Part shown: positions 4,147 to 40,807 of the stretch, in pieces
Layout: each line of letters begins with the position of its first letter
Position numbering within the stretch: the stretch's first letter is position 1
Assembly (NCBI GenBank): GCA_963844965.1
Contig: CAWJQC010000007.1
Span: 1-64,000, forward strand
Direction of reading: 5' to 3'
Source of the DNA: an uncultured bacterium
GTDB lineage: Bacteria; Patescibacteriota; Minisyncoccia; UBA6257; 2-01-FULL-56-20
DNA: 64,000 nt
Translations under genes and position numbers: made by a program
The notes under the pieces: generated by a model
Seen by the model: the letters and a program-made list of their open reading frames with translations, nothing else
The model's database searches: none
Told to the model about the DNA's origin: nothing

Positions 4147-4607
4147 TCACAATTTCTTTTCTTTGAACCATTGCCGGAAGGTCAAATCTTCCCACGCATG
4201 GCCGAACCAAAGAGCGAGAAAGACCAGAACATAGATGATTGCCGCACCGATGTCGGTCGATCCTGCGGTGTAGGGACCGCCAAATCCTTCGGCGGTAGAC
4301 CAGATTACAGACTCATCGCGATGCCGCCCCATGTTGTGATGCGTGAGAAAATTCCGAAGATGAGAGCAAGAGCGACAGCCGTTTCCGCAATCGCGACGAT
4401 AAGGGCAAAGAAGTGCGGATTTACCCCTACGACGTGGATCCAGAGATTGATCCAACTCCTTACAAGCGATGATTGGTTCTCGAGGTTCCCCGAAAGATAG
4501 TTCGTGAAATTAGAGAAGAAATCCGGTTGCCATTTGAAGTAGGCATCAATGCCCCAAATAGCGCCGAAGGCAATCCGTAGCCATGCGAATTTTCGTTGGT
4601 CGCTCAT
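4147..4607 (-). CDS. DoxX-like small membrane protein, apparently split by a 1-nt frameshift near 4305
   Basis: ORFs 4305-4607 and 4147-4455 together read as one ~150-aa hydrophobic protein (WGIDAYFKW ... VIWSTAEGFGG...). The junction is not in a homopolymer. Confidence 0.4.
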
Positions 4608-4621
4608 AACTCAATCCTACC

Positions 4622-5227
4622 TTACTTCATAGATTGCGACATTTCCGACTCCGATGGGATTATCGCGCATACGTCGCGATTTTGTATTCCGATGCTTACT
4701 TTCCGAATCGAAAAGAGGAGCAGGATAATTCCTGCAATGCCGAACTCCGCTCCATGGAGCGGAAGCAACGCAATCGCGCCGGATGCCCCAAAAAAAGACA
4801 GAATTGCAGCGCCGAAATATGATACCGCACGCCGTGCATCCGATACCGAAGATGCCGCTCGCAATGCCACTAAACTCCCCACGACGCCGCTCTTTGGCGC
4901 AGTAGAACGAATTGTTTTCCATTGGTAGGCGAGCATGGCAGCGTCGACGCCGAAAAGCAGCGAAAGGATTGCGATGGCCGCCACGGAGAGCGGCATGACG
5001 CTCGTCCCGACTCCCTCAAACAGCGCCCACAGCAACTGGGCTTTTGCGGAAATTGGGATTGCGGGATTCCCGATGAAGCTTGTGATAAGGCGGAAATTCG
5101 GGAGATACGTGGCGAACGCAAAGAGCATGGTGGCACAAACGGCGGCAAGAAAAACGTACCGCCAATTTGCGAAAACCTCTTGTAACGCAGTTGTGATGCT
5201 ATTTTTTCGCGGCATAGGAAACGACAA
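4622..5227 (-). CDS. hypothetical polytopic membrane protein
   Basis: 201-aa ORF with several hydrophobic helices and no recognisable motif. Confidence 0.45.
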   Translation of the reverse strand: MSFPMPRKNSITTALQEVFANWRYVFLAAVCATMLFAFATYLPNFRLITSFIGNPAIPISAKAQLLWALFEGVGTSVMPLSVAAIAILSLLFGVDAAMLAYQWKTIRSTAPKSGVVGSLVALRAASSVSDARRAVSYFGAAILSFFGASGAIALLPLHGAEFGIAGIILLLFSIRKVSIGIQNRDVCAIIPSESEMSQSMK

Positions 5228-5733: not shown

Positions 5734-6413
5734 TACCCCGCAACCTGCTGGGAGTTGAACGTACCGTCAACGATCATCCTCTTGGCGATGCCCTCGTTCA
5801 CAAAGTAATGCCAGCACTTGCAGCAGCATGGCTTTTCCTTTGATATCGCATAAGCGTCATCAAAGATTTTTTGTTGGGCAGGAGTGAGGGTCGTCGCCTT
5901 ATCGTAGTCAATCCAGTATTTAGCCATGGCGACCGGCGTATGCATCGGGTCAAGCGGGATGTTCAGCATACTCTTATATGCTTGGAGTTTTACGAGGTTC
6001 GCGTGGTAATCAGCCGTGTCTTTCATGGCGCTGCAGCACTGGCCGCCGAGATAAAGCCCAGTCGTACTCGCAAGTAATCCGCCCGCCCCGCCGCAGCTTC
6101 CTGAATACGAGGGGACATTGGAAAGAAGGTTATCGACGTTCGCGCCGCAGGTGATGATCTGGCTGTCGAGATCGACAAGTTCGGGATCAACCGGCTTGGT
6201 CATGCCCGCGCTTTGCGTCATAAAGTTATTCTTCCCGGCTTCGGTCGGAATTTTCGCGTAGATCGCCGCGTCTGCTTCGAGCAGAGCCCTCTTCGAGCCA
6301 TGCAGCGAAAAGTATGCAATCGCACCTGCGATTACTACCGATCCGACAAGGATCACAAGCGGGAGCGCTCTTTTATTTTTCAGCTGTGATTTTGACCTCA
6401 TAGTCGTGGTCAT
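5703..6413 (-). CDS. Cys-rich secreted/membrane-anchored protein (GGQCCSAM, KPCCCKCWHY motifs)
   Basis: N-terminal TM anchor and unusual CC/CCC clusters. Its stop overlaps the start of the DsbA-like gene at 6413. Confidence 0.5.
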   Translation of the reverse strand: MTTTMRSKSQLKNKRALPLVILVGSVVIAGAIAYFSLHGSKRALLEADAAIYAKIPTEAGKNNFMTQSAGMTKPVDPELVDLDSQIITCGANVDNLLSNVPSYSGSCGGAGGLLASTTGLYLGGQCCSAMKDTADYHANLVKLQAYKSMLNIPLDPMHTPVAMAKYWIDYDKATTLTPAQQKIFDDAYAISKEKPCCCKCWHYFVNEGIAKRMIVDGTFNSQQVAGYWDASDICGS

Positions 6414-7189
6414 TATTTCCCCGTCAACGCCGCATCAATGACCACTTTGAACGCCGAGTAGGGCTGTGCACCCAGCACCTGCTGCCCGTTGATGAACACG
6501 GTCGGAGTTGAGTTCACGCCCGCTGCGCTCGCATCATTCTTCTGTTGTGCTACCAAGCTGGCATATTTATTGCCGTCGATACAGCCCGTGAACTGCGTCA
6601 TGTCGAGGCCGATTTGATTTGCGAGCTTCAAGAACAAGGTGCGGTTGAAGTACCCGTCATCTTCACCGCCGCCCTTTGCATCGTCGGCAACTTTTCCGGC
6701 GTACAAGGCATCGCTGTACGCCCAGCGTTTGTTTTGCTCTTGGGCACACTCGGCAGCTTGCGCCGCTGCCGTCGATTCAGGACCGAGAAAGGCGAAGTTC
6801 CTGAATACCATTTTTACCTTTCCCGTATTCACATAGTCAGTAATGATCTGCGGCTCTGTTTGCGAAAAGAAACGGCCACAGAATGGGCACTGGTAGTCGC
6901 CGTATTCGATGAGAGTTACGGGGGCGTTCTGATTTCCGAGAATGGCATCTCTCGCACCGAGTTGCATAACTTGCGAAGCGGAAACGGATGGTTGTGGAGC
7001 GGCGGTAGGCGAAGTAGTCCCGCCTGTCGTTCCGGCGGAAGTCGGCGCGCCCTTATAGGTTGCGGCAAAAACTACCGCTCCGCCGATTACGATTGCGGCG
7101 ATGAGGATTGAGATGGGAAGAAATTTATCTTTTTGTTTCACCTGCGCTGCGGCTTCCGGTTGATGGAGATGTTCTTGGTGGTGTTCCAT
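6413..7189 (-). CDS. DsbA-family thiol:disulfide oxidoreductase (thioredoxin fold)
   Basis: N-terminal TM, a Thr/Gly/Pro-rich linker, and the CPFC active-site motif in YQCPFCGRFF. Confidence 0.8.
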   Translation of the reverse strand: MEHHQEHLHQPEAAAQVKQKDKFLPISILIAAIVIGGAVVFAATYKGAPTSAGTTGGTTSPTAAPQPSVSASQVMQLGARDAILGNQNAPVTLIEYGDYQCPFCGRFFSQTEPQIITDYVNTGKVKMVFRNFAFLGPESTAAAQAAECAQEQNKRWAYSDALYAGKVADDAKGGGEDDGYFNRTLFLKLANQIGLDMTQFTGCIDGNKYASLVAQQKNDASAAGVNSTPTVFINGQQVLGAQPYSAFKVVIDAALTGK

Positions 7190-7272
7190 GATGTAAGTGA
7201 TACTTGATTTATATAACTAAAACAACAGCGCCGACCCGCGCCGCCTCGACAAGGCCATCGCAAATCAGCGAT

Positions 7273-7650
7273 TCAAAAAATCGGAGAAAGGCTGTAGATT
7301 TTCGGATGCATGATACCCCGACGCATGATTTCCAAGATAGGATTCCAGATTTGCGAGAGTGATTGAGTTCTGCCGCCTGAACCGTGAAATGGGTTTAACT
7401 TGGAGATACCTTTTTGAAAACTGGCGTACCAAACCGCGAATGCCGCGAGCAACGCAACGACCGAGAAAAGAAGCACTTTGCCCGCGGGGGTTTGAGGAAG
7501 AACGCTCAATAAGTTGGTGGAACCGCAACCATGTGTCGCTCCGCTATGCATCGGCATGGAGCCGGATGGCATAAAGCCGCAGGATAAAGAAATCGAAGCT
7601 ATGGCCACGAGACTTATAAAAGCCAGGATTTGAGGTGAATAGGTTCTCAT
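7273..7650 (-). CDS. small membrane protein with a Met/His-rich motif (MPSGSMPMHSGATHGCG)
   Basis: Signal/TM segment followed by an M/H-rich motif that resembles periplasmic Cu-binding sequences. The copper-binding role is inferred from context only. Confidence 0.4.
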   Translation of the reverse strand: MRTYSPQILAFISLVAIASISLSCGFMPSGSMPMHSGATHGCGSTNLLSVLPQTPAGKVLLFSVVALLAAFAVWYASFQKGISKLNPFHGSGGRTQSLSQIWNPILEIMRRGIMHPKIYSLSPIF

Positions 7651-12475: not shown

Positions 12476-13295
12476 ATGGCGCGGGTAATTTCTATCTGCA
12501 ATCAGAAAGGCGGTGTCGGGAAAACCACCACGGCCGTTAACCTCGGCGCATATTTGGCGGCATACGGCAAGAGGACACTTCTTGTTGATTTTGACCCGCA
12601 GGCGAACGCGAGTTCTGCCGTCGGGCACGATTATACGGATACAGGTCCGAGCGTTTATCACGGAATTTTGGGCGAGGCGAAGCCGGATGAAGTCGTGAAA
12701 CCGACCCAACTTTTCAATTTTCACTACATTCCTTCCGCGCAGCATCTGGCCGGAGCGCTGATTGAGCTCGTGAATGTTCCCGAGCGGGAATATTTCTTGC
12801 GGAAATTTTTGAACAACCTGCGGCACAAGTACGACTATATTCTGATTGACCTGCCGCCGTCCCTGAATTTGCTCACCGTGAACGGCCTAGTGGCCTCGGA
12901 CGAGGTCCTGATTCCCATACAGGCGGAATATTATTCGCTGGAGGGGCTGGGGCAGATTCTTGAACACCGTGAATCTCGTGAGAGATAATTTGCGGCATCC
13001 GTTGCGGGTTGCCGGAGGTTTGGTTACAATGTATGACAAGCGCGAACATTTGAGCCGCGAAGTAGCTAAGAATCTCCGCCGCCATTTTCCACACAAGGTT
13101 TTTGAGACAGAAATCCCGCGGAGTGTCGCTCTGGCCGAAGCTCCGAGTTTCGGGAAGCCGATAATTTTGTATCGTCCCGATTCGCCCGGCGCCACGGCCT
13201 ACCGCGCGCTCGCGGAGGAAATTATTTCGCAGGAGAAAGAAATAATATCCGAGCAAGGAACGGTCGCCAGTGAAAATTTCGGAAATCTTGTATGA
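12476..13295 (+). CDS. parA: ParA/Soj partition ATPase, split by a 1-nt insertion near 12960
   Basis: Walker A KGGVGKTT in ORF 12476-12988. The C-terminal half (NLVRDNL...VFETEIPRSVALAEAPSFGKPI) is in the +1 frame, ORF 12960-13295. Confidence 0.75.
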
Positions 13296-13719
13296 GTGTG
13301 ATACTAATATACAAATGCATGCGAATGATACAAATAATACGAATAAGATAATTTATCCCGAATTATCTTATACAATCGTCGGCGCTTGTTTCAGCGTTCA
13401 CAACAATCTTGGCAGGTATGCGCGGGAAAAGCAGTATTGTGACGATTTGGCGAAAAGATTTAAAGAAATTAGACTGCCGTTCAGGAGAGAATTAACAGTT
13501 GGTGGTACGGGGAATATAATAGATTTTTTGGTTGATGATAAAATTATTTTGGAAATCAAGGCTAAGCGGTTGCTTGCTAAAGAAGACTATTTTCAAATCC
13601 AGCGTTACTTGCAGGCGTTGAATATCAAGCTAGGCTTATTGATTAATTTTCGCGACAAGTATTTGAAACCCGCAAGGATAGTAAAAATAGATACCAAGAC
13701 AAAAGAAAGATTTGTATAA
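13270..13719 (+). CDS. GxxExxY-family protein (PD-(D/E)xK-like)
   Basis: HNNLGRYAREKQY...GLLINF architecture typical of the GxxExxY family. Confidence 0.6.
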   Translation: MKISEILYECDTNIQMHANDTNNTNKIIYPELSYTIVGACFSVHNNLGRYAREKQYCDDLAKRFKEIRLPFRRELTVGGTGNIIDFLVDDKIILEIKAKRLLAKEDYFQIQRYLQALNIKLGLLINFRDKYLKPARIVKIDTKTKERFV

Positions 13720-13764: not shown

Positions 13765-14952
13765 ATGCTTGGCAAAGGACTTGAATCATTAATACCCCCG
13801 CACCAGAGCTCTGACGAGCACGGTATGGGGCAGGCCCCGCAACAGTCGCATGGAAGCGGCGACGGGCAACCCCAGTCGGATTTTCCGAACGATGAGGTGG
13901 TTTTGACGCCGTACGATGAAGCGGCGGCCACTACCCCACCAGTTCCAGTAGATCCGCAGCCGGTAAATCCCGCGCCCGCCTTCGCTCCTGAAGAGCTACG
14001 GCGAGGCGAGCCCGCCTCCACTAGTGAAGAGTTCCGGCAGAGCGAGCCCGCTGAAGGCGACTTCCGTTCAAAAATCAGAATAAATCTCCCCGAAGAAAAA
14101 AGAGGAAGAATAGCCCCATCAAGACCCGAAGAGGATTATGTTTTTCATATTGAAGTTTCCAAAATAAAAGCCAATCCGGCACAACCACGCAGGGATTTCA
14201 ACGAGGCGGGAATCAGGGAATTGGCACTGTCCATACGTGAATTCGGTTTTCTCCAGCCGCTCGTCGTCTCAAAAATAGAAAAAGAAACGGCGACGGGGAT
14301 TGATGTTGAGTATCAGCTCATCGCCGGCGAACGGCGCCTGCTTGCCGCGAAAATGCTAGGCTTGGAGATGGTGCCGGCGATCATCCGCAGGGTGGATTTG
14401 GAACGCGAAAAACTGGAATTGGCGGTGGTGGAAAATATCCAGCGTGAGGATTTGAATCCAATTGAGAAAGCAAGAGCGCTCGCGCGGCTTCAGGACGAAT
14501 TTCGCATGACGCAGCGGGAGATCGCGGCGAAGCTCGGCAAATCGCGGGAAGTCGTGGCGAACAGCGTGCGGCTCCTCGGCTTGCCGACATACGCGCAGGA
14601 GGCGCTCATAAAAGGACAAATTACGGAAAGCCACGGGCGGTTTCTTCTCGCGATTGATGACCAGGCGGCGCAGAAAAAATTGTTTGACGATATGCTGGCG
14701 CGGCATTTGACCATGCGGGAACTCAGAGAGCGCGTGCAGATGTCGAGAAGTAGGGGGCAAGAAGTAAGAAGTAAGGAAAACAGTGCGAACTTGACGCCGG
14801 AAATGAAAATGATGGAAGAGAAGTTGTCGGCAGAACTTGGGACGCCGGTGAAAATAGAAAAAGGAGCGAACACCGGCAAAATCACGATTACGTTTTACTC
14901 GGAGGAGGAATTGGAAAGTATCGTGCGAAAAATCGGAAAAGAAGAAGGTTAG
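13765..14952 (+). CDS. parB: ParB/Spo0J partition protein with a long Pro/Glu-rich N-terminal extension
   Basis: ParB box LIAGERRLLAAKMLGLEMVPAII and an HTH region. Sits downstream of parA. Confidence 0.85.
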   Translation: MLGKGLESLIPPHQSSDEHGMGQAPQQSHGSGDGQPQSDFPNDEVVLTPYDEAAATTPPVPVDPQPVNPAPAFAPEELRRGEPASTSEEFRQSEPAEGDFRSKIRINLPEEKRGRIAPSRPEEDYVFHIEVSKIKANPAQPRRDFNEAGIRELALSIREFGFLQPLVVSKIEKETATGIDVEYQLIAGERRLLAAKMLGLEMVPAIIRRVDLEREKLELAVVENIQREDLNPIEKARALARLQDEFRMTQREIAAKLGKSREVVANSVRLLGLPTYAQEALIKGQITESHGRFLLAIDDQAAQKKLFDDMLARHLTMRELRERVQMSRSRGQEVRSKENSANLTPEMKMMEEKLSAELGTPVKIEKGANTGKITITFYSEEELESIVRKIGKEEG

Positions 14953-15025
14953 GAGTTCGGATACTAGCCCGTAACCACGATATACATTTCGTAGGATAAA
15001 CTTTCAGAGATTACTAAATAAAGAT

Positions 15026-15811
15026 ATGGAACTAGATAATTTTCAAAAAAGTTTATTAAAGCATATAGAAAATTTTCGCAGAGTTTTAGCGACACCTTCT
15101 GGCGACTGGTCAGTTAAGGGTTTTATTGATATTGCAAAAAACATTTATACAATTTCAGTAGATACCAAAGTAGTATCTAAAATTATTGAATTGATGATGT
15201 TTCCTGTATTACAGAAATTCGCAAAGGAAAACAATTTTGAAATGACTTTTTGTGCAGAACAAAATCATTATCCAGATGTTACTTTTATAACAAAAGATAA
15301 GCGAAAAATTGCCCTCGATCTTAAAAGTACCTATCGAAAAAATCATGATGTAGTTTCGGGATTTACACTTGGAGCGTTTACTGGTTATTTCCGTTTTCGC
15401 GATTCAAATAAAAATATCACCTTTCCCTACAAAGAATATGATAAGCACTATATTCTCGGCATTATTTATACCCAACAGGGAGAATTGATTGACGAAAATA
15501 AAGTTTATATGATTGATGATTTAGAAGATATTTTATCGGTCGTCAAAGATTTTGATTTTCTTGTTCAAGAAAAATATAAAATCGCTAAAGATAGGCCGGG
15601 TAGCGGAAATACAAAAAATATCGGCTCTTGTGTGAAAATTAACGAGCTTAAAGAAGGCAGGGGGCCGTTTTCAAAACTCGGAGTTAAAATATTTGACGAT
15701 TTCTGGATGAATTATATGACCTTGGAAATGGCACGAAACGCAAAATTAAAGCGGCCGCCATACTCTAATCTCAAAGAGTATTTGAAATATCGCAACATAA
15801 AGAATATTTAA
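15026..15811 (+). CDS. type II restriction endonuclease, EcoRV-like
   Basis: Recalled similarity to R.EcoRV: SVDTKVVSKIIEL.., QNHYPDVTF (EcoRV QNHYPDFTL), RKIALDLKSTY (EcoRV KKIAIDIKTTY, D/K catalytic residues), GSGNTKNIGS. Confidence 0.7.
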   Translation: MELDNFQKSLLKHIENFRRVLATPSGDWSVKGFIDIAKNIYTISVDTKVVSKIIELMMFPVLQKFAKENNFEMTFCAEQNHYPDVTFITKDKRKIALDLKSTYRKNHDVVSGFTLGAFTGYFRFRDSNKNITFPYKEYDKHYILGIIYTQQGELIDENKVYMIDDLEDILSVVKDFDFLVQEKYKIAKDRPGSGNTKNIGSCVKINELKEGRGPFSKLGVKIFDDFWMNYMTLEMARNAKLKRPPYSNLKEYLKYRNIKNI

Positions 15812-15813
15812 CC

Positions 15814-16896
15814 ATGCAAATCGTGAAGCAACAGCAATCCCAATTATTCAACGAAATGCCAACGAAAAATGCTGGCGTTTTGCCATCTACTCGTTATCAG
15901 GGGAGTAAATATAAAATTCTCAAATGGATTGATTACTGCACAAAAGACTTAGATTTTGATTCAGTCCTCGATGCCTTTGGCGGAACTGGTTGTGTCGGCT
16001 ATATGTATAAGAAAAATGGTAAGCAAGTTTTTTATAACGACTCCTTAAAATTCAATCATTACGTTGGGCTTGCTTTAATAGAAAATAAAAATACTACCTT
16101 GAACGATAATGATTTGGATTTAATCTTAAAGAAAAATCCGAAAGTAAAATATCCTTCTTTTATCTACGACACGTTTCACGATATTTATTTCACCGACGAG
16201 GAGAATAAGTGGCTTGATGTGGTCGTAACAAATATTAGAAACATTAAAGATAAATATAAAAGGGCCTTGGCGTATTATGCTTTATTTCAATCCTGCATAA
16301 TTAAGCGGCCATACAATTTATTTCATAGGAAAAATCTATATATAAGAACAGCAGAGGTAGAAAGGAGTTTCGGCAACAAAAAAACATGGGATACTCCGTT
16401 TGAGAATCATTTTCTCAAGTTTGTTGAGGAAGCAAACAGTGCCGTGTTTGATAATGGCAAAAAAAATCAAGCAGTCCATTCAGATATTTTCGGCCTAACC
16501 ATTCCGAAAATTGACCTTGTTTATATTGATACGCCATATATTTCTGAAAAAGGTGTGGGCGTAAATTATTTTGATTTCTATCATTTTTTGGAGGGCATTG
16601 TTTTTTATGATGAATGGCCGAAACTGATTGATGAAAATTCAAAACATAAAAAAATAAAGAACGGAAAAAATGAATGGTGTAATAATGGTGAGATACACGG
16701 TGCTTTTGAGCGACTGTTCGATAAATTCAAAAAATCAATTTTGGTCGTTTCCTATCGTGATGATGGAATTCCGACAATCTTGGAACTGGTAAATATGCTC
16801 AAAAATCATAAGAAGTCCGTTGAAATAAAAAAAATAGATTATAAATACGTTTTAAGTAGTGGCAACTCTAAAGAGGTTTTGATTATAGCGAAATAA
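15814..16896 (+). CDS. Dam-family (D12 class) N6-adenine DNA methyltransferase, cognate to the EcoRV-like endonuclease
   Basis: Motif I DAFGGTGCVG and motif IV DTPY (DPPY-like). Starts 3 nt after the endonuclease stop. Low GC content. Confidence 0.8.
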   Translation: MQIVKQQQSQLFNEMPTKNAGVLPSTRYQGSKYKILKWIDYCTKDLDFDSVLDAFGGTGCVGYMYKKNGKQVFYNDSLKFNHYVGLALIENKNTTLNDNDLDLILKKNPKVKYPSFIYDTFHDIYFTDEENKWLDVVVTNIRNIKDKYKRALAYYALFQSCIIKRPYNLFHRKNLYIRTAEVERSFGNKKTWDTPFENHFLKFVEEANSAVFDNGKKNQAVHSDIFGLTIPKIDLVYIDTPYISEKGVGVNYFDFYHFLEGIVFYDEWPKLIDENSKHKKIKNGKNEWCNNGEIHGAFERLFDKFKKSILVVSYRDDGIPTILELVNMLKNHKKSVEIKKIDYKYVLSSGNSKEVLIIAK

Positions 16897-16914
16897 ATTA
16901 GTATTATTACACTT

Positions 16915-17175
16915 ATGCAGTGTTATATTATTTCATTTCAAACATCCCTCTCTGATAAAACGGGACTAGAGAGTGCCATAAAATCTTATGGCACGTGGGC
17001 AAAAATCACACCAAATACTTGGGCGGTGGTTTCTGATAGGCCCGCAAAAGATATTAGGGATCATATTCTTTCAAATTTGGCACAGGGAGATCGTCTTATG
17101 GTTGTTCGTTCGGGGACGGAGGCTGCGTGGAGCAACGCCATCGCTAGTAACGATTGGCTAAAAAAGAATTTGTAA
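16915..17175 (+). CDS. hypothetical protein
   Basis: 86-aa ORF inside the AT-rich island. Confidence 0.3.
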   Translation: MQCYIISFQTSLSDKTGLESAIKSYGTWAKITPNTWAVVSDRPAKDIRDHILSNLAQGDRLMVVRSGTEAAWSNAIASNDWLKKNL

Positions 17176-17588
17176 TTATGCCAAACGAGAACGAACAAAT
17201 TTCAGGGGGAGTAAAGATCAATCGAGCAAAACTTGGTTCAATTTCTCTGTATGATGTCACGGAAGACGAACTAGGCTTGTTAGAGCGCGGATCGCCAGCT
17301 TCAACTTACCTTAATTTCGCGATCGGACTTCTATCAATCGGAATTTCTTTTTTCATTAGTATTTTTTCAACCAAAATCGAAGATATAAAGGTTTATGCAG
17401 TATTTTGGGTTATTGCGCTTGTAACTACAATTGGCGGGATTGTACTTTTCGTAGTGTGGCGTCAAGCGAATAAATCAGCCGAAAATGTGATACAGAGGAT
17501 AAAGAACAGAATGAGTCCTGCTACACCTAGTTCTAATACCGCTCCGGTTGCTGGGCAAGAATCAAGTTCCCGGGCAGAAAATAATTAA
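17154..17588 (+). CDS. hypothetical membrane protein
   Basis: 144 aa with 2 TM helices. Confidence 0.35.
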   Translation: MAKKEFVIMPNENEQISGGVKINRAKLGSISLYDVTEDELGLLERGSPASTYLNFAIGLLSIGISFFISIFSTKIEDIKVYAVFWVIALVTTIGGIVLFVVWRQANKSAENVIQRIKNRMSPATPSSNTAPVAGQESSSRAENN

Positions 17589-17727
17589 TCGCCGCTAAAA
17601 ATTCTGTCCGGCCGAGCGAGGGCGCGGCGGAAGGGGGATGTAGGGGAATTCCGCCGCATCCGAGCGTCAGAAATCAGCGTCAGGATTTTCGCGAAAAAAA
17701 ATTCGGATTTTGTTTGGGATAGACAGC

Positions 17728-17808
17728 TTATGTCAATTTGTAGCTAATTTCCCTTACTCCTCTGATTTGTCTCAATTTGAAAATCAGTTTCTCTATTTTT
17801 TGCTTGCC
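17728..17808 (-). repeat. relA 3'-end repeat, copy 1 (encodes ..KQKIEKLIFKLRQIRGVREISYKLT*)
   Basis: An 81-nt paralog of the relA C-terminal codons plus stop. It differs from the true gene end mostly at synonymous sites. Confidence 0.8.
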
Positions 17809-18040: not shown

Positions 18041-18277
18041 ATGATGTGCCAGGCCGACAGCGAAAAGACCGAACAAGAGCAAACAAAGATAGCGGAAAGA
18101 AAAGCTCTGGGATATTTGCGGGAGCACCCCGGTGCCGTGAGGCGGGATTTCTTGGTGGAATATCTCAGATTTGAGGGCGTGCCGGACCTCGTGGCGCGAG
18201 CCGCACTGAGGAATCTTGTCGACGAGAGGAAGGTTCTGTCAACGGAAAGCGGTCTGGAAATAAAATTGTCGCAGTAG
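18041..18277 (+). CDS. hypothetical protein
   Basis: 78-aa ORF between repeat copies 1 and 2. Confidence 0.3.
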   Translation: MMCQADSEKTEQEQTKIAERKALGYLREHPGAVRRDFLVEYLRFEGVPDLVARAALRNLVDERKVLSTESGLEIKLSQ

Positions 18278-18442: not shown

Positions 18443-18742
18443 TCAATAAGGCGAGGGGTTGGATTGGACGAGCGCGAAGTAACTCGCGGCATCATCACAA
18501 TCATTTTCTTGCATTTCCTCTATTATCATATTGAGCACCCCCCCATCTTCAATTGACAATATGTGTTCTGACGCGCCTTGATTATGCTTATTAATATGGG
18601 CTTCATGAACAAATTGCAGTGGTTCATCCGGTGCGATGCGGACATAATTAAAACCCGCTTTCTTAAAAAGTTCGATGGCTTCTTTCGCCTCGGTTCTGTG
18701 ATGTTCGCCTTCGTCAGCGGGTAATGATTCGTGGTTAATCAT
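18443..18742 (-). CDS. hypothetical protein
   Basis: 99-aa ORF. Confidence 0.3.
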   Translation of the reverse strand: MINHESLPADEGEHHRTEAKEAIELFKKAGFNYVRIAPDEPLQFVHEAHINKHNQGASEHILSIEDGGVLNMIIEEMQENDCDDAASYFALVQSNPSPY

Positions 18743-18949: not shown

Positions 18950-19028
18950 ATCATCAAATCAATTTGTAGCTAATTTCTCTTACTCCTTTTATTTGTTTCA
19001 ATTTGAAAATCAGTTTTTCTATTTTCTG
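18950..19028 (-). repeat. relA 3'-end repeat, copy 2 (encodes KQKIEKLIFKLKQIKGVREISYKLI*, identical peptide)
   Basis: Encodes the same 25-aa peptide and stop as relA, with several synonymous nucleotide differences. Confidence 0.8.
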
Positions 19029-19105
19029 CTTGTCTGCGACGCACTTGACCTTATCTGATTCATATATTATTATGTCAGTTAGCAAAATTCACTTGGAGGG
19101 CTTGG

Positions 19106-19717
19106 GTGATAAGCAGATTCCTGTTGCTTTCGCATCAGATTCTCGTATTGGGTTGCGTTTCCGCCGTCGGAAGCATTGCGTACGTAATTTCTAACTGGTG
19201 GACGGCAAGGAAATATGAGGACCGAGGCGTGCCTGGCCGGTATTTTGCCGTCTATTTTTTTACGGCGGTGATTACCGTGCCCGCCACCGAAGAGTTGATT
19301 TGTAGACTACCGTTGCCTATTGCATTCAGCGGTATTTCTGCCGGAGCTTGGGCGGGCATCGTGTTGACGGGCATTGTGTTCGGGCTAGTTCATTACCCCA
19401 AGGGTTTTAGAAAAGACAGAGAAGATGCAGTTTCAATAGGTGGAAACGCCAAATTAACTGATTGGTTCTCAAAACCGATCATGGGAAATAAGTGGCTGCC
19501 ACCGAAATCGTTCGTTCTCAGGGCTTTCTTGGGAGTAATGTGCGGCTATTGCGCCATTAGACTCCAGTCCCTGTACGCGGCATTTGCCGTCCACGCGTTA
19601 TGGAATTCAGTAATGTGGGTCCCGTTGGCGGCGCTGATCTGTTCTTATATGCTGCGCATCAAGGTGAAGGAGTATTTCAGGCATCGGCGTTCTAGAAATT
19701 TTGAGCTGCAACACTAA
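19106..19717 (+). CDS. CPBP-family (CAAX/Abi) intramembrane metalloprotease
   Basis: Motifs ATEELICRLPL (EExxxR), GLVHYPKG and AVHALWNS (HxxxN). Confidence 0.7.
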   Translation: MISRFLLLSHQILVLGCVSAVGSIAYVISNWWTARKYEDRGVPGRYFAVYFFTAVITVPATEELICRLPLPIAFSGISAGAWAGIVLTGIVFGLVHYPKGFRKDREDAVSIGGNAKLTDWFSKPIMGNKWLPPKSFVLRAFLGVMCGYCAIRLQSLYAAFAVHALWNSVMWVPLAALICSYMLRIKVKEYFRHRRSRNFELQH

Positions 19718-19734: not shown

Positions 19735-19813
19735 TTATATCAGCTTATAACTAATCTCCCTCACTCCTTTAATTTGTTTCAATTTGAAAATCAGCTTTTC
19801 TATTTTTTGCTTG
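19735..19813 (-). repeat. relA 3'-end repeat, copy 3 (the actual gene end)
   Basis: Last 25 codons plus stop of the relA ORF. Gene-proximal member of the three-copy repeat family. Confidence 0.8.
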
Positions 19814-21453
19814 TTAACAATTACGCATTCAATCTTGCTCACGGAAAAACGGCCGCCGGCGATATTTTGCGTGTTGAAGTCGCTGATGTTTACATGAGAA
19901 CGCGCTATTGTCGTGGAGAAATCTTTTATGAGGCCGACGCGGTCGTCGGCAACGATGCGGAGTTCGGTCCTTGTCGGCAATCTTGAGCGCTTTCCCAGGA
20001 TGTTCTTCGCTCTGAGCGACGCCCTGATGTGTTCGCGGGCCATTGAGGTTTTGACGAACTTCAGCCAGTCCTCCGACGGCTTTTTGTTTTTTTGCGTCAT
20101 GATTTGCACCAGGTCGCCGGACTTGAGTTTGTGGTTTAACGGAACGAGCTGGTTGTTTACCTTTGCGCCGGCGCAGGAGTTGCCGATTTCGCTGTGAATT
20201 TGGTAGGCGAAATCTACCGGCGTGGCGTCCGCCGGCAGATCAATGACATCGCCTCTCGGCGTGATTACGAAGATGCGCTTTTTGAAAAAGTCAACTTTCA
20301 TCGCCCGCAGAAATTCTTCTGGGTCTTCGGCGCGTTTTTCCTCGCTGCGGTTCGTGATGGCGGCGGAGAGCCAGTTCTTCAGCTGTTCCACCCATCTCAG
20401 TTCCTCGGAGAGGTGTTTTTGCGGTATTTTTTCGCCGCGCCTTGATTGTTCGTAGAGCCAGTGGGCGGCGATGCCGTTTTCGTTCTCCTCATGCATCTCT
20501 TTCGTGCGGATCTGGAACTCAATTATTTTTTCCTCCGGCCCGATGACGGTCGTGTGCAAACTCCTGTAGCCGTTCGGCTTCGGCATGGCGATATAGTCCT
20601 TGATGCGTCCGGGGAGAGGTGGCCAGGCGTGGTGGATAGCGCCGAGGGCGGCGTAGCATTCCGAAACGTTGCTCACGATGATACGCATGGCGACGAGATC
20701 GTAGACGTTCTCTATTTCCATATCGCGCTCCAAAAGCTTGTGATATAAGCTCGCGTAGCGTTTCGCCCTGAAATCAATGGAGATGGGCGTGAGATTGTTT
20801 TCTTTGAGTATCGCCTCCACCGCCGGTTTTATCTTTTTCAGGTACTCCAGCCGTTTTTCGTATTTTTCCTCAACGGTCTTGTGCAGCCACTCCGATTCGC
20901 GCGGATGAATATAGGGAAAAGCGAGGTCGCGAAGTTCGCCCGACAGGTTCTGCATGCCGAGGCGATAGGCGAGCGGCGCATAGATCTCGTCCGTTTCAAG
21001 CGCGATTCTCTTTTGTTTGATGGGCGGCAGGGCGGCGAGCGTTTTCATGTTGTGTAGCCGGTCGGCAAGTTTTATGAAAACGACCCTCAGGTCCTTGCTC
21101 AGCGCGAGTATCATTTTGCGGAGGTTTTCTATTTTGCTTTCCACGCCGCGGTATTTAATAAGGCCGAGTTTCGTGACTCCATCAACGAGGAAAGCGATGT
21201 CCGGGCCGAACTCGCGCCGCACGTCGTCAATGGTTATGCCCGTGTCCTCAACCGTGTCGTGCAGGAGTCCCGCGGCTATCGTGGTTTCGTCAAGATGCCA
21301 CTGGTTCAGGGTTTCGGCGGTGGCCAAGGGATGCGTGAGATACAGCTCGCCACTCTCGCGCTTTTGCTTCGCATGCGCTTTTTCGGCAAATTTATACGCT
21401 TTGGCTATCACGCCGTCGGGATAGGTTTTTATTATCTCCTTGATTGTCATCAT
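19735..21453 (-). CDS. relA: bifunctional (p)ppGpp synthetase/hydrolase, RelA/SpoT family
   Basis: HD domain (HDTVEDT), a nucleotidyltransferase RelA/SpoT domain, then TGS and C-terminal ACT-like regions. 572 aa. Confidence 0.9.
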   Translation of the reverse strand: MMTIKEIIKTYPDGVIAKAYKFAEKAHAKQKRESGELYLTHPLATAETLNQWHLDETTIAAGLLHDTVEDTGITIDDVRREFGPDIAFLVDGVTKLGLIKYRGVESKIENLRKMILALSKDLRVVFIKLADRLHNMKTLAALPPIKQKRIALETDEIYAPLAYRLGMQNLSGELRDLAFPYIHPRESEWLHKTVEEKYEKRLEYLKKIKPAVEAILKENNLTPISIDFRAKRYASLYHKLLERDMEIENVYDLVAMRIIVSNVSECYAALGAIHHAWPPLPGRIKDYIAMPKPNGYRSLHTTVIGPEEKIIEFQIRTKEMHEENENGIAAHWLYEQSRRGEKIPQKHLSEELRWVEQLKNWLSAAITNRSEEKRAEDPEEFLRAMKVDFFKKRIFVITPRGDVIDLPADATPVDFAYQIHSEIGNSCAGAKVNNQLVPLNHKLKSGDLVQIMTQKNKKPSEDWLKFVKTSMAREHIRASLRAKNILGKRSRLPTRTELRIVADDRVGLIKDFSTTIARSHVNISDFNTQNIAGGRFSVSKIECVIVNKQKIEKLIFKLKQIKGVREISYKLI

Positions 21454-30308: not shown

Positions 30309-30544
30309 GTTAAATAATTACGCCCAAATTTTACTCCGCTGGCAATAAAAAACAAGGCCGCTGCGGTCGGCGGCAGTTGGCTTATTTTTCCCACGGCACC
30401 GGCCTTTGTAGGATGTGCATTGGTTTGAAATCCGTCATCGCGGACTATTACATAACAGTGCCATCTGTGCGGCCCCCTTCAGAATTATCGATTTTATGCT
30501 ATTATAACGATAACAACTGAATATGCCTAAACCTCGCCACCGGC

Positions 30545-30670
30545 GGGGCATGGCACGAAAACCGGTCGGGGATAGAGAGCCCATCGTTTGGGAGCACCCT
30601 GACCGGTCGCATGCCGAAAGGTATGTGGGTGGCGCAAGCCATCGCCCAGCGGTGGGCTTTGTGGTTTCGC
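30545..30670 (+). ncRNA. unclassified structured RNA-like element, copy A (paralog of 40685-40807)
   Basis: About 70% identical to copy B. GAAA and GCAA tetraloop hairpins show compensatory changes between copies (catgcc/ggtatg vs tatctc/ggggtg; tggc/gcca vs tccc/ggga). Ends in GGGCTTT. The strand is assumed. Confidence 0.4.
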
Positions 30671-40419: not shown

Positions 40420-40684
40420 ATTATTGCAATTATAGTAGCAAGGCCTTTATTTCTCAAGACTTTCGATTGTTTCCATGATACCATAATAATATAACTGCGT
40501 CAAGTCGCGCGTTTTCGTTCCCGAACGACCCCTGCTCTATCCTCAAAAACCTTGTCAGGGTCTAACTACGAAGGCCCCTTCGCAAGTCCTCTGATCTAAG
40601 TTAGGGTGGATGCAAAGGTCGAAAAATCGTATAATCTCATTAACAACTGAATAACCTCAAAGGCAGAGCCGTAACCCTCGCGAA

Positions 40685-40807
40685 AAATCGTGCGGCATGG
40701 CTCGAAATCCGTCCTCGGTAGAAAGCTCCTAGTCAGAGCACCGGGGACGGTCATATCTCGAAAGGGGTGTGGGTCCCGCAAGGGATCGCTGGCTGGGAGC
40801 TTTTTAT
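40685..40807 (+). ncRNA. unclassified structured RNA-like element, copy B (paralog of 30545-30670)
   Basis: Same hairpin architecture as copy A with covarying stems. Ends GGGAGCTTTTTATTT, which looks like a terminator. Confidence 0.4.

Follow-up and report, generated by a model that had tools for sequence, protein, structure and literature searches.

An AT-rich island at positions 15026 to 17588 of a Patescibacteriota contig very probably carries a type IIP restriction-modification (R-M) system of the EcoRV kind that is intact and was acquired horizontally, and for which we infer the recognition site GATATC. The island lies within a stretch of 64,000 nucleotides (nt) (contig CAWJQC010000007.1 of GenBank assembly GCA_963844965.1, an uncultured bacterium), hereafter the window. 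Its first two genes would encode an EcoRV-family restriction endonuclease (R) and an N6-adenine DNA methyltransferase (M). By analogy with EcoRV, M would methylate an adenine in the GATATC sites of the host using S-adenosylmethionine (SAM), while R would act as a homodimer and, with Mg2+, cut unmethylated GATATC in incoming DNA, cleaving through residues E55, D84, D98, and K100 and reading the bases with the loop GSGNTKNIGS. The two-gene unit would have arrived as, or grown into, a four-gene block in the window genome.

Endonuclease R and the two-gene cassette

The R gene (15026 to 15811, + strand) encodes a predicted type IIP endonuclease of 261 amino acids (aa) that matches the Pfam model Endonuc-EcoRV (PF09233) over profile positions 2 to 243 of 244, scoring 323 bits (cut-off, 25; E = 1.3e-96). 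Searches against PDB aligned R to EcoRV chains at 35% identity (E = 1e-37), which places it in the same nuclease family as the plasmid pLG13 system of Escherichia coli (R.EcoRV, M.EcoRV, and C.EcoRV). Residues were mapped in an alignment that took in EcoRV, six homologues from plasmids, and 28 from cassettes. Both blocks that a preliminary description of this DNA had read as the EcoRV active site, QNHYPDVTF and RKIALDLKSTY, are present, and the profile match, the PDB match, and the residue mapping all confirm that reading: EcoRV D74, D90, and K92 correspond to D84, D98, and K100 of the window protein, and E45 corresponds to E55. These four predicted catalytic residues are invariant in 29 cassette sequences. 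K38, Q69, N70, and K119 of EcoRV are likewise identical in the window protein, as is the loop G182 to S191 except at T187, and all of these positions, together with the catalytic ones, are invariant or nearly so (at least 28 of the 29 cassette sequences). The recognition loop reads GSGNTKNIGS (G192 to S201) in the window protein and GSGNTTNIGS in EcoRV, with N185, T186, and N188 identical, so that the two enzymes share the Q-loop residues QN and an R-loop of the form GSGNTxNIGS. In EcoRV, D74, D90, and K92 serve catalysis, the R-loop reads the major groove, the Q-loop is involved in minor-groove contacts and with D74, and K38 is involved in DNA kinking (Pingoud et al. review, PMC4081073). R thus belongs to the EcoRV family of endonucleases, and its catalytic and recognition residues are intact.

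The composition of the island sets it apart from its surroundings. G+C content (GC) is 0.30 to 0.39 over approximately 14800 to 17200, compared with ~0.50 to 0.56 in the flanks, and has recovered by ~17600. The span 15026 to 17588 (2,563 bp; GC 0.35) is the lowest-GC segment of its size in the full 64 kb, ~4.4 standard deviations (SD) below the window mean (0.499; SD, 0.034). The sharp drop in GC reported in the preliminary description is therefore real, and the limits given there (14960 to 17600) fit the homology-defined island well. That definition comes from a collinear match of 2,565 bp at 78.9% nt identity between window positions 15026 to 17587 and a set of Nomurabacteria-like contigs (L051 to L055), in which R, M, an 86-aa protein (o86), and a hydrophobic-core protein of 136 aa (o136) follow in the same order as in the window and the flanks are unrelated. 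Since the match spans all four genes, the AT-rich island appears to be a four-gene block common to the window genome and the Nomurabacteria-like contigs.

A smaller unit is distributed far more widely. R has thousands of homologues in metagenomes, and the best 120 clusters, 75 to 100% identical to it, are spread over bins of widely differing taxa; M homologues are likewise distributed across such taxa. A scan of GTDB species genomes yielded 37 loci, one per differing genomic context (L006 to L042). Many belong to Patescibacteria, and others were found in bins of Omnitrophota, Elusimicrobia, Margulisbacteria, Firestonebacteria, Coxiellaceae, and Actinomycetota; megabase-scale chromosomes or contigs among the carriers belong to Bdellovibrionales, Alphaproteobacteria, and Oxydemutatoraceae. 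Of 35 loci whose contig reaches M, 34 have the same M beside R, following it within 0 to 20 nt, and at least 27 have both genes intact. DNA homology to the window begins at 15011 to 15026 and ends at 16889 to 16901, that is, at the two open reading frames (ORFs) plus ~10 nt, and o86 and o136 are absent from all 37 loci. We infer from this that the core mobile unit consists of the two genes only (approximately 15015 to 16900 in the window). Cassette GC is 0.22 to 0.37 irrespective of a flank GC of 0.26 to 0.59. Taken together, the GC minimum, a GC independent of the host, homology that stops at the ORF ends, and the diversity of the carriers point to a horizontal origin, and recovery of the same cassette from 37 unrelated genomic contexts upholds the acquisition proposed in the preliminary description.

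Cassettes are 69 to 82% identical at the nt level (71 to 82% except for the most divergent locus, L036). Nonsynonymous divergence (dN) is 0.055 to 0.2, synonymous divergence (dS) is saturated, and their ratio (omega) is ~0.02 to 0.08, values indicating that R and M are both under strong purifying selection. Because dS is saturated, omega is low, and identity is only 69 to 82%, the cassette genes are best read as old, strongly constrained, and still moving rather than as products of a recent sweep. The flanks of the 37 loci hold no recurring transposase, integrase, mobility gene, or terminal repeat, and the neighbors differ from locus to locus, the recurring ones in a subset of loci being an upstream helix-turn-helix (HTH) controller and an upstream PDC-S18 gene. 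Searches for a vector found no cassette-type homologue in IMG/VR, where only two relatives at 44 to 45% identity, of the Rhodothermus branch, were present; none above 45% identity in PLSDB; and only two distant M matches in phage records. We also weighed carriage by archaea and rejected it. L014, a contig binned as "Pacearchaeota," has a gene for an elongation factor P of the bacterial, three-domain type (4579 to 5160), which makes its bin assignment doubtful, and the "Methanofastidiosa" record is a 2.2-kb contig only. The literature that we searched held nothing specific on this cassette or on EcoRV-type systems in candidate phyla radiation bacteria.

Gene arrangement and expression

R and M are indeed co-directional, as the preliminary description stated. 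R terminates in a TAA whose last base is 15811, and M begins with the ATG at 15814, which leaves a gap of 2 nt (CC) instead of the 3 nt given there. In the EcoRV system, M is divergent from C and R, whereas in the window R precedes M and there is no controller gene. The R-then-M order, which the preliminary description contrasted with the divergent ecoRV genes, is no departure within the family: the closest noncassette nucleases (44 to 45% identity), from Rhodothermus marinus pRMAR01, Antarctobacter heliothermus pSMS3-1, and the IMG/VR contigs L056 and L057, sit in R-then-M pairs that are likewise co-directional and abutting. Given the shared direction and the 2-nt gap, R and M of the window are probably co-transcribed and translationally coupled.

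Control of the cassette varies among carriers. A full HTH_3 gene lies upstream of R in L006, L009, L013, and L018, and a 3' remnant only in six other loci; the encoded protein matches the PADLOC Control_protein model (E = 3e-9), as C.EcoRV does. A PDC-S18 gene is located directly upstream of R in four loci, three of which also have a full C gene upstream of PDC-S18. Downstream neighbors include PDC-S39 and an AriA/PtuA-like ATPase, so that the cassette often resides in defense islands. Five loci (L032, L034, L035, L037, and L039) share a conserved leader of ~90 nt before R, with a short hairpin and a TACAAT/TATAAT-like box, which is absent from the window; in that sub-lineage the leader probably provides the cassette with a promoter of its own.

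In the window, a spacer of 73 nt (14953 to 15025, + strand) separates the stop codon of parB from the start codon of R, and only its last 10 to 15 nt are common to other cassettes. A tblastn search with the HTH controller protein found no match in the window, and there is no C gene or remnant beyond ~13 nt. The promoter and terminator scan returned seven promoter-like sites compared with 10.6 in shuffles, none of them upstream of R. Since the window copy has neither a C gene nor a recognizable promoter of its own, transcription of R and M probably enters from the parAB side. EcoRI and Eco29kI are also co-directional operons without a controller protein, in which the nuclease gene comes first and the MTase (methyltransferase) gene immediately after, and both depend on promoters or antisense RNAs that lie within R. 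Unlike them, the window R shows no reduced synonymous variation of the kind expected for an embedded regulatory element (the profile is flat, at 0.58 to 0.79), and its promoter-like sites are no commoner than in shuffles.

The lack of a C gene and of any recognizable promoter or terminator upstream of R leaves expression of R in this host in doubt. It is possible that R became silent or barely expressed when controller and promoter were lost on insertion, leaving an orphan methyltransferase beside a dormant, decaying nuclease, since relatives of the cassette have full or truncated HTH control genes upstream. Decay of R with retention of M does occur in this family, and such decay is the usual fate of R-M systems. 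Five loci show it: R is 5' truncated with M intact in L040 to L042, the R remnant of L041 being fused in frame to M (6001 to 7404), and R is frameshifted in L037 and L038. The reverse, a split M with an intact R, was seen in L030 and may be an assembly error. We nevertheless consider silencing unlikely for the window copy. Neither of its ORFs is shortened and all key residues are in place, many other carriers without C keep an intact R under strong purifying selection, and transcription could read through from parB into R, as no terminator lies between them.

Methyltransferase lineage and site specificity

The M gene (15814 to 16896, + strand) encodes a predicted D12-class N6-adenine DNA methyltransferase of 360 aa, and its product scores 51.2 bits on the Pfam D12 MTase model PF02086 (cut-off, 22; E = 1.8e-13). 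M.EcoRV (298 aa) scores 211 bits on the same model, making the window M a weak-scoring, divergent member. Motif I is DAFGGTG (residues 53 to 59) and motif IV is DTPY (residues 239 to 242); FGGTG and DTPY are invariant in 31 cassette homologues of M, whereas M.EcoRV and the relatives of M outside the cassette family have DPPY. Purifying selection suggests that DTPY is active.

Both EcoRV and the window nuclease are thus partnered by an N6-adenine methyltransferase of the D12 superfamily, and probably share the site GATATC, yet the two methyltransferases are not orthologous. BLASTP aligned M to M.EcoRV only along the stretch around the DPPY motif (21 residues; E = 0.01 to 0.1), and profile-profile comparison (hhalign) of the two families aligned only 46 N-terminal columns containing the SAM-binding motifs, with a probability of 90%. 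By comparison, the methyltransferases beside all eight other EcoRV-family nucleases examined (E. coli pLG13, Rhodothermus, Antarctobacter, Geobacillus pEF60063-2, Acinetobacter, Latilactobacillus, and two IMG/VR contigs) are 47 to 59% identical to one another and to M.EcoRV, in any gene orientation. Those of pRMAR01, pSMS3-1, L056, and L057, which resemble the window in gene arrangement, are M.EcoRV orthologues (52 to 58% identical), unlike M of the window. M instead shares 33 to 37% identity over ~90% of its length with methyltransferases adjacent to DpnII-family and AlwI-family nucleases. In the DpnII group (Sphingomonas taxi STP2 and Rhizobium rhododendri pTi6.2), these are single-domain proteins encoded upstream of the nuclease; in the AlwI group (Geobacillus pGS18, Acinetobacter ursingii, and Priestia megaterium), the relative is the C-terminal domain of a tandem methyltransferase, also upstream of the nuclease. 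Both groups are like the window M in motif order and differ from it in their partner nuclease families, in having DPPY, and in their sites, presumably GATC or GGATC. Consistent with this placement, M aligned to positions 297 to 623 of the PADLOC tandem model PDLC03261 (E = 1e-69) and M.EcoRV to positions 26 to 205, and the PADLOC models differ accordingly (PDLC03264 for M.EcoRV and the C-terminal half of PDLC03261 for M). Searches of M against all PDB chains, by sequence and by profile, detected no relative.

M therefore lies outside the M.EcoRV orthologous group. Its relatives beside DpnII and AlwI nucleases and its near lack of alignment to M.EcoRV indicate that it was recruited from another Dam-like lineage, which elsewhere goes with sites that contain GAT. 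The preliminary description had called M "Dam-family, like M.EcoRV"; membership in the superfamily holds (PF02086), and the likeness to M.EcoRV is contradicted by BLASTP, hhalign, and the nearest relatives. That description had also named a methyltransferase of another specificity group as a result that would tell against it, and the DpnII- and AlwI-associated relatives go part of the way there.

Conservation of the EcoRV base-contact residues in R makes GATATC the most probable specificity. Depletion of the site in carrier genomes is supportive of this assignment. Over 344 kb of host DNA flanking the cassette at 38 carrier loci, GATATC was observed 69 times compared with 124 expected (ratio, 0.56; z = -4.95), which makes it the second most depleted of 2,079 hexamers, after AAAAAA, and the most depleted palindrome; it was under expectation in 35 of the 38 loci. 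The median observed/expected ratio in these flanks was 0.84 for palindromes and 1.00 for nonpalindromes. The pooled deficit fits restriction at GATATC and is neither decisive nor carrier specific. Avoidance of GATATC within the cassettes themselves was also considered (12 observed, 30 expected) and was rejected as a signal, the site ranking 15th of 44 palindromes and occurring in 10 of 38 cassettes.

Several results weigh against a GATATC-specific system of the EcoRV kind. The catalytic motif of M is not the canonical DPPY, the nearest annotated relatives of M accompany DpnII-family (GATC) or AlwI-family nucleases rather than EcoRV-type ones, and an AlphaFold2 model of M built with 31 close homologues had a predicted local distance difference test score of 46, too poor for use. 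In the window alone, GATATC occurs 12 times compared with 16 to 17 expected, a nonsignificant difference, so the depletion that the preliminary description proposed looking for in the contig did not emerge at this scale. Loci with a decayed R are depleted to a similar extent (6 observed, 10.8 expected), as are two cassette-free relatives (6 observed, 8.6 expected), and depletion of short palindromes, GATC and GGCC among them, is general in these genomes. Because decayed-R loci and cassette-free relatives are affected alike, the depletion of GATATC may be community-wide rather than specific to carriers.

A working R-M pair with another site, e.g., a GAT-containing variant, would accommodate the kinship of M with DpnII- and AlwI-side methyltransferases and its lack of orthology with M.EcoRV. 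R itself differs from EcoRV at Q68E, S112G, R140Q, T187K, and R226K, and several phosphate-contact residues are changed. On the other hand, R keeps all known EcoRV base-contact and catalytic residues, and GATATC is the very hexamer palindrome most depleted in carrier flanks. The methyltransferase relationship carries less weight than it may seem to, as specificity is not expected to be conserved at 33 to 37% identity and the sites involved all share GAT. We regard a different site as quite improbable.

Insertion site, neighboring features, and significance

Beyond the cassette, the four-gene island holds a predicted soluble protein of 86 aa (o86; 16915 to 17175, + strand), which matches phrog_1090, a family of unknown function (E = 6e-10), and a predicted membrane protein of 136 aa with a hydrophobic central region (o136; 17178 to 17588, + strand), for which profile searches gave no significant family match. 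The start codon of o136 lies 2 nt past the o86 stop. Its homologue in L052 begins MPNENEQ, matching a start at the ATG of 17178, and the mechanically called ORF from 17154 is probably too long. This coupled pair travels with the R-M cassette only in the window genome and the Nomurabacteria-like contigs and could be an accessory or an independent two-gene module. Directly to the right of the island is a GC-rich, hairpin-containing noncoding element (17590 to 17714, no strand assigned) with no credible match to an Rfam family. In L006, L026, and L033, blastn located related copies 1.4 to 1.9 kb beyond the downstream end of the cassette, and in L006 the two halves of the element are ~220 nt apart.

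The host belongs among Patescibacteria according to its ParB homologues, the best named matches being to Liptonbacteria and Minisyncoccia (52 to 67% identity). Two relatives share the synteny parA-parB-[cargo]-relA(convergent)-topA-dprA and hold different cargo, so that the gap between parB and relA is a variable spot. A repeat search showed the last 25 codons of relA as three direct repeats on the - strand (family D1) at 17728 to 17808, 18954 to 19034, and 19735 to 19815, the last being the real end of the gene. The three copies encode nearly one peptide, KQKIEKLIFKL[K/R]QI[K/R]GVREISYKL[I/T]*, at 74 to 80% nt identity, and between them lie small ORFs at 18041 to 18277 (+ strand) and 18443 to 18742 (- strand) and a CPBP/Rce1-like protease gene (19106 to 19717). 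The repeats look like the footprint of repeated, tandem insertion at the relA 3' end. The R-M island is located to the left of the outermost copy, outside the repeat-bounded segments. The relA hotspot that the preliminary description invoked thus has support in the three gene-end copies and the variable cargo, and the island does not appear to be part of it.

One could still suppose that the whole parB-relA interval, the R-M island included, was integrated site specifically at the 3' end of relA, as one of several integrative elements arrayed in tandem. The three copies, which still encode the same 25 residues, and the differing cargo of relatives are what such an array would leave. The boundaries do not agree with it: no relA-end copy occurs on the left side of the island, where an integrative element would need one, and the four-gene block ends at 17587, short of the outermost repeat. 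In addition, neither the ORF list nor family searches revealed an integrase gene between parB and relA, and relA adjoins the cassette in none of the 37 other carrier loci. There is little chance that the island came in this way. That the AT-rich stretch is simply native DNA is scarcely credible, as its chromosomal location, with nothing further, speaks for it, and this origin is refuted by a GC 4.4 SD below the window mean, by the block's 79% nt identity to Nomurabacteria-like contigs with unrelated flanks, by the presence of the cassette in 37 other species with unrelated flanks, and by its absence from the syntenic site of relatives.

Other features of the window deserve mention. A GxxExxY/PDDEXK_3 gene (13270 to 13719) lies between parA and parB in a second AT-rich dip (GC 0.35); in relatives L047 and L049, parB follows parA directly, and this gene is probably another small insertion. 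parA itself appears split into two overlapping ORFs in different frames (12476 to 12988 and 12960 to 13295), as a frameshift or an error in sequencing might produce. The LOOT RNA motif (Rfam RF03000; 83 to 90 bits) occurs twice, at 30524 to 30643 and 40667 to 40787.

The mechanism of the horizontally acquired EcoRV-type system proposed here is standard for type IIP R-M, and as such it answers no open question. It is mildly unusual in the swap of its methyltransferase, in the DTPY motif, and in the very broad distribution of just two genes. On a wider reading, which we hold tentatively and lean slightly against, a 1.9-kb selfish pair, an EcoRV-type nuclease with a non-orthologous methyltransferase of Dam-like lineage bearing DTPY, circulates among many phyla with Patescibacteria over-represented. 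It would do so without a mobility gene, terminal repeats, or a known plasmid or phage vector, its turnover outpacing adjustment of base composition while its proteins remain strongly constrained, and it may drive community-wide avoidance of GATATC. The addition of the 86-aa and 136-aa genes as a functional extension of the R-M system is speculative.

An EcoRV-type nuclease serviced by a methyltransferase of a different Dam-like lineage would offer a natural case for studying shifts of methyltransferase specificity among GAT-containing sites and for asking whether DTPY can serve as a functional motif IV. The pair would also rank among the most widely shared small defense cassettes in uncultivated, small-genome bacteria, which for the most part are not known to carry CRISPR (clustered regularly interspaced short palindromic repeats). 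It makes a concrete and cheap prediction, namely that carriers would have N6-methyladenine at GATATC.

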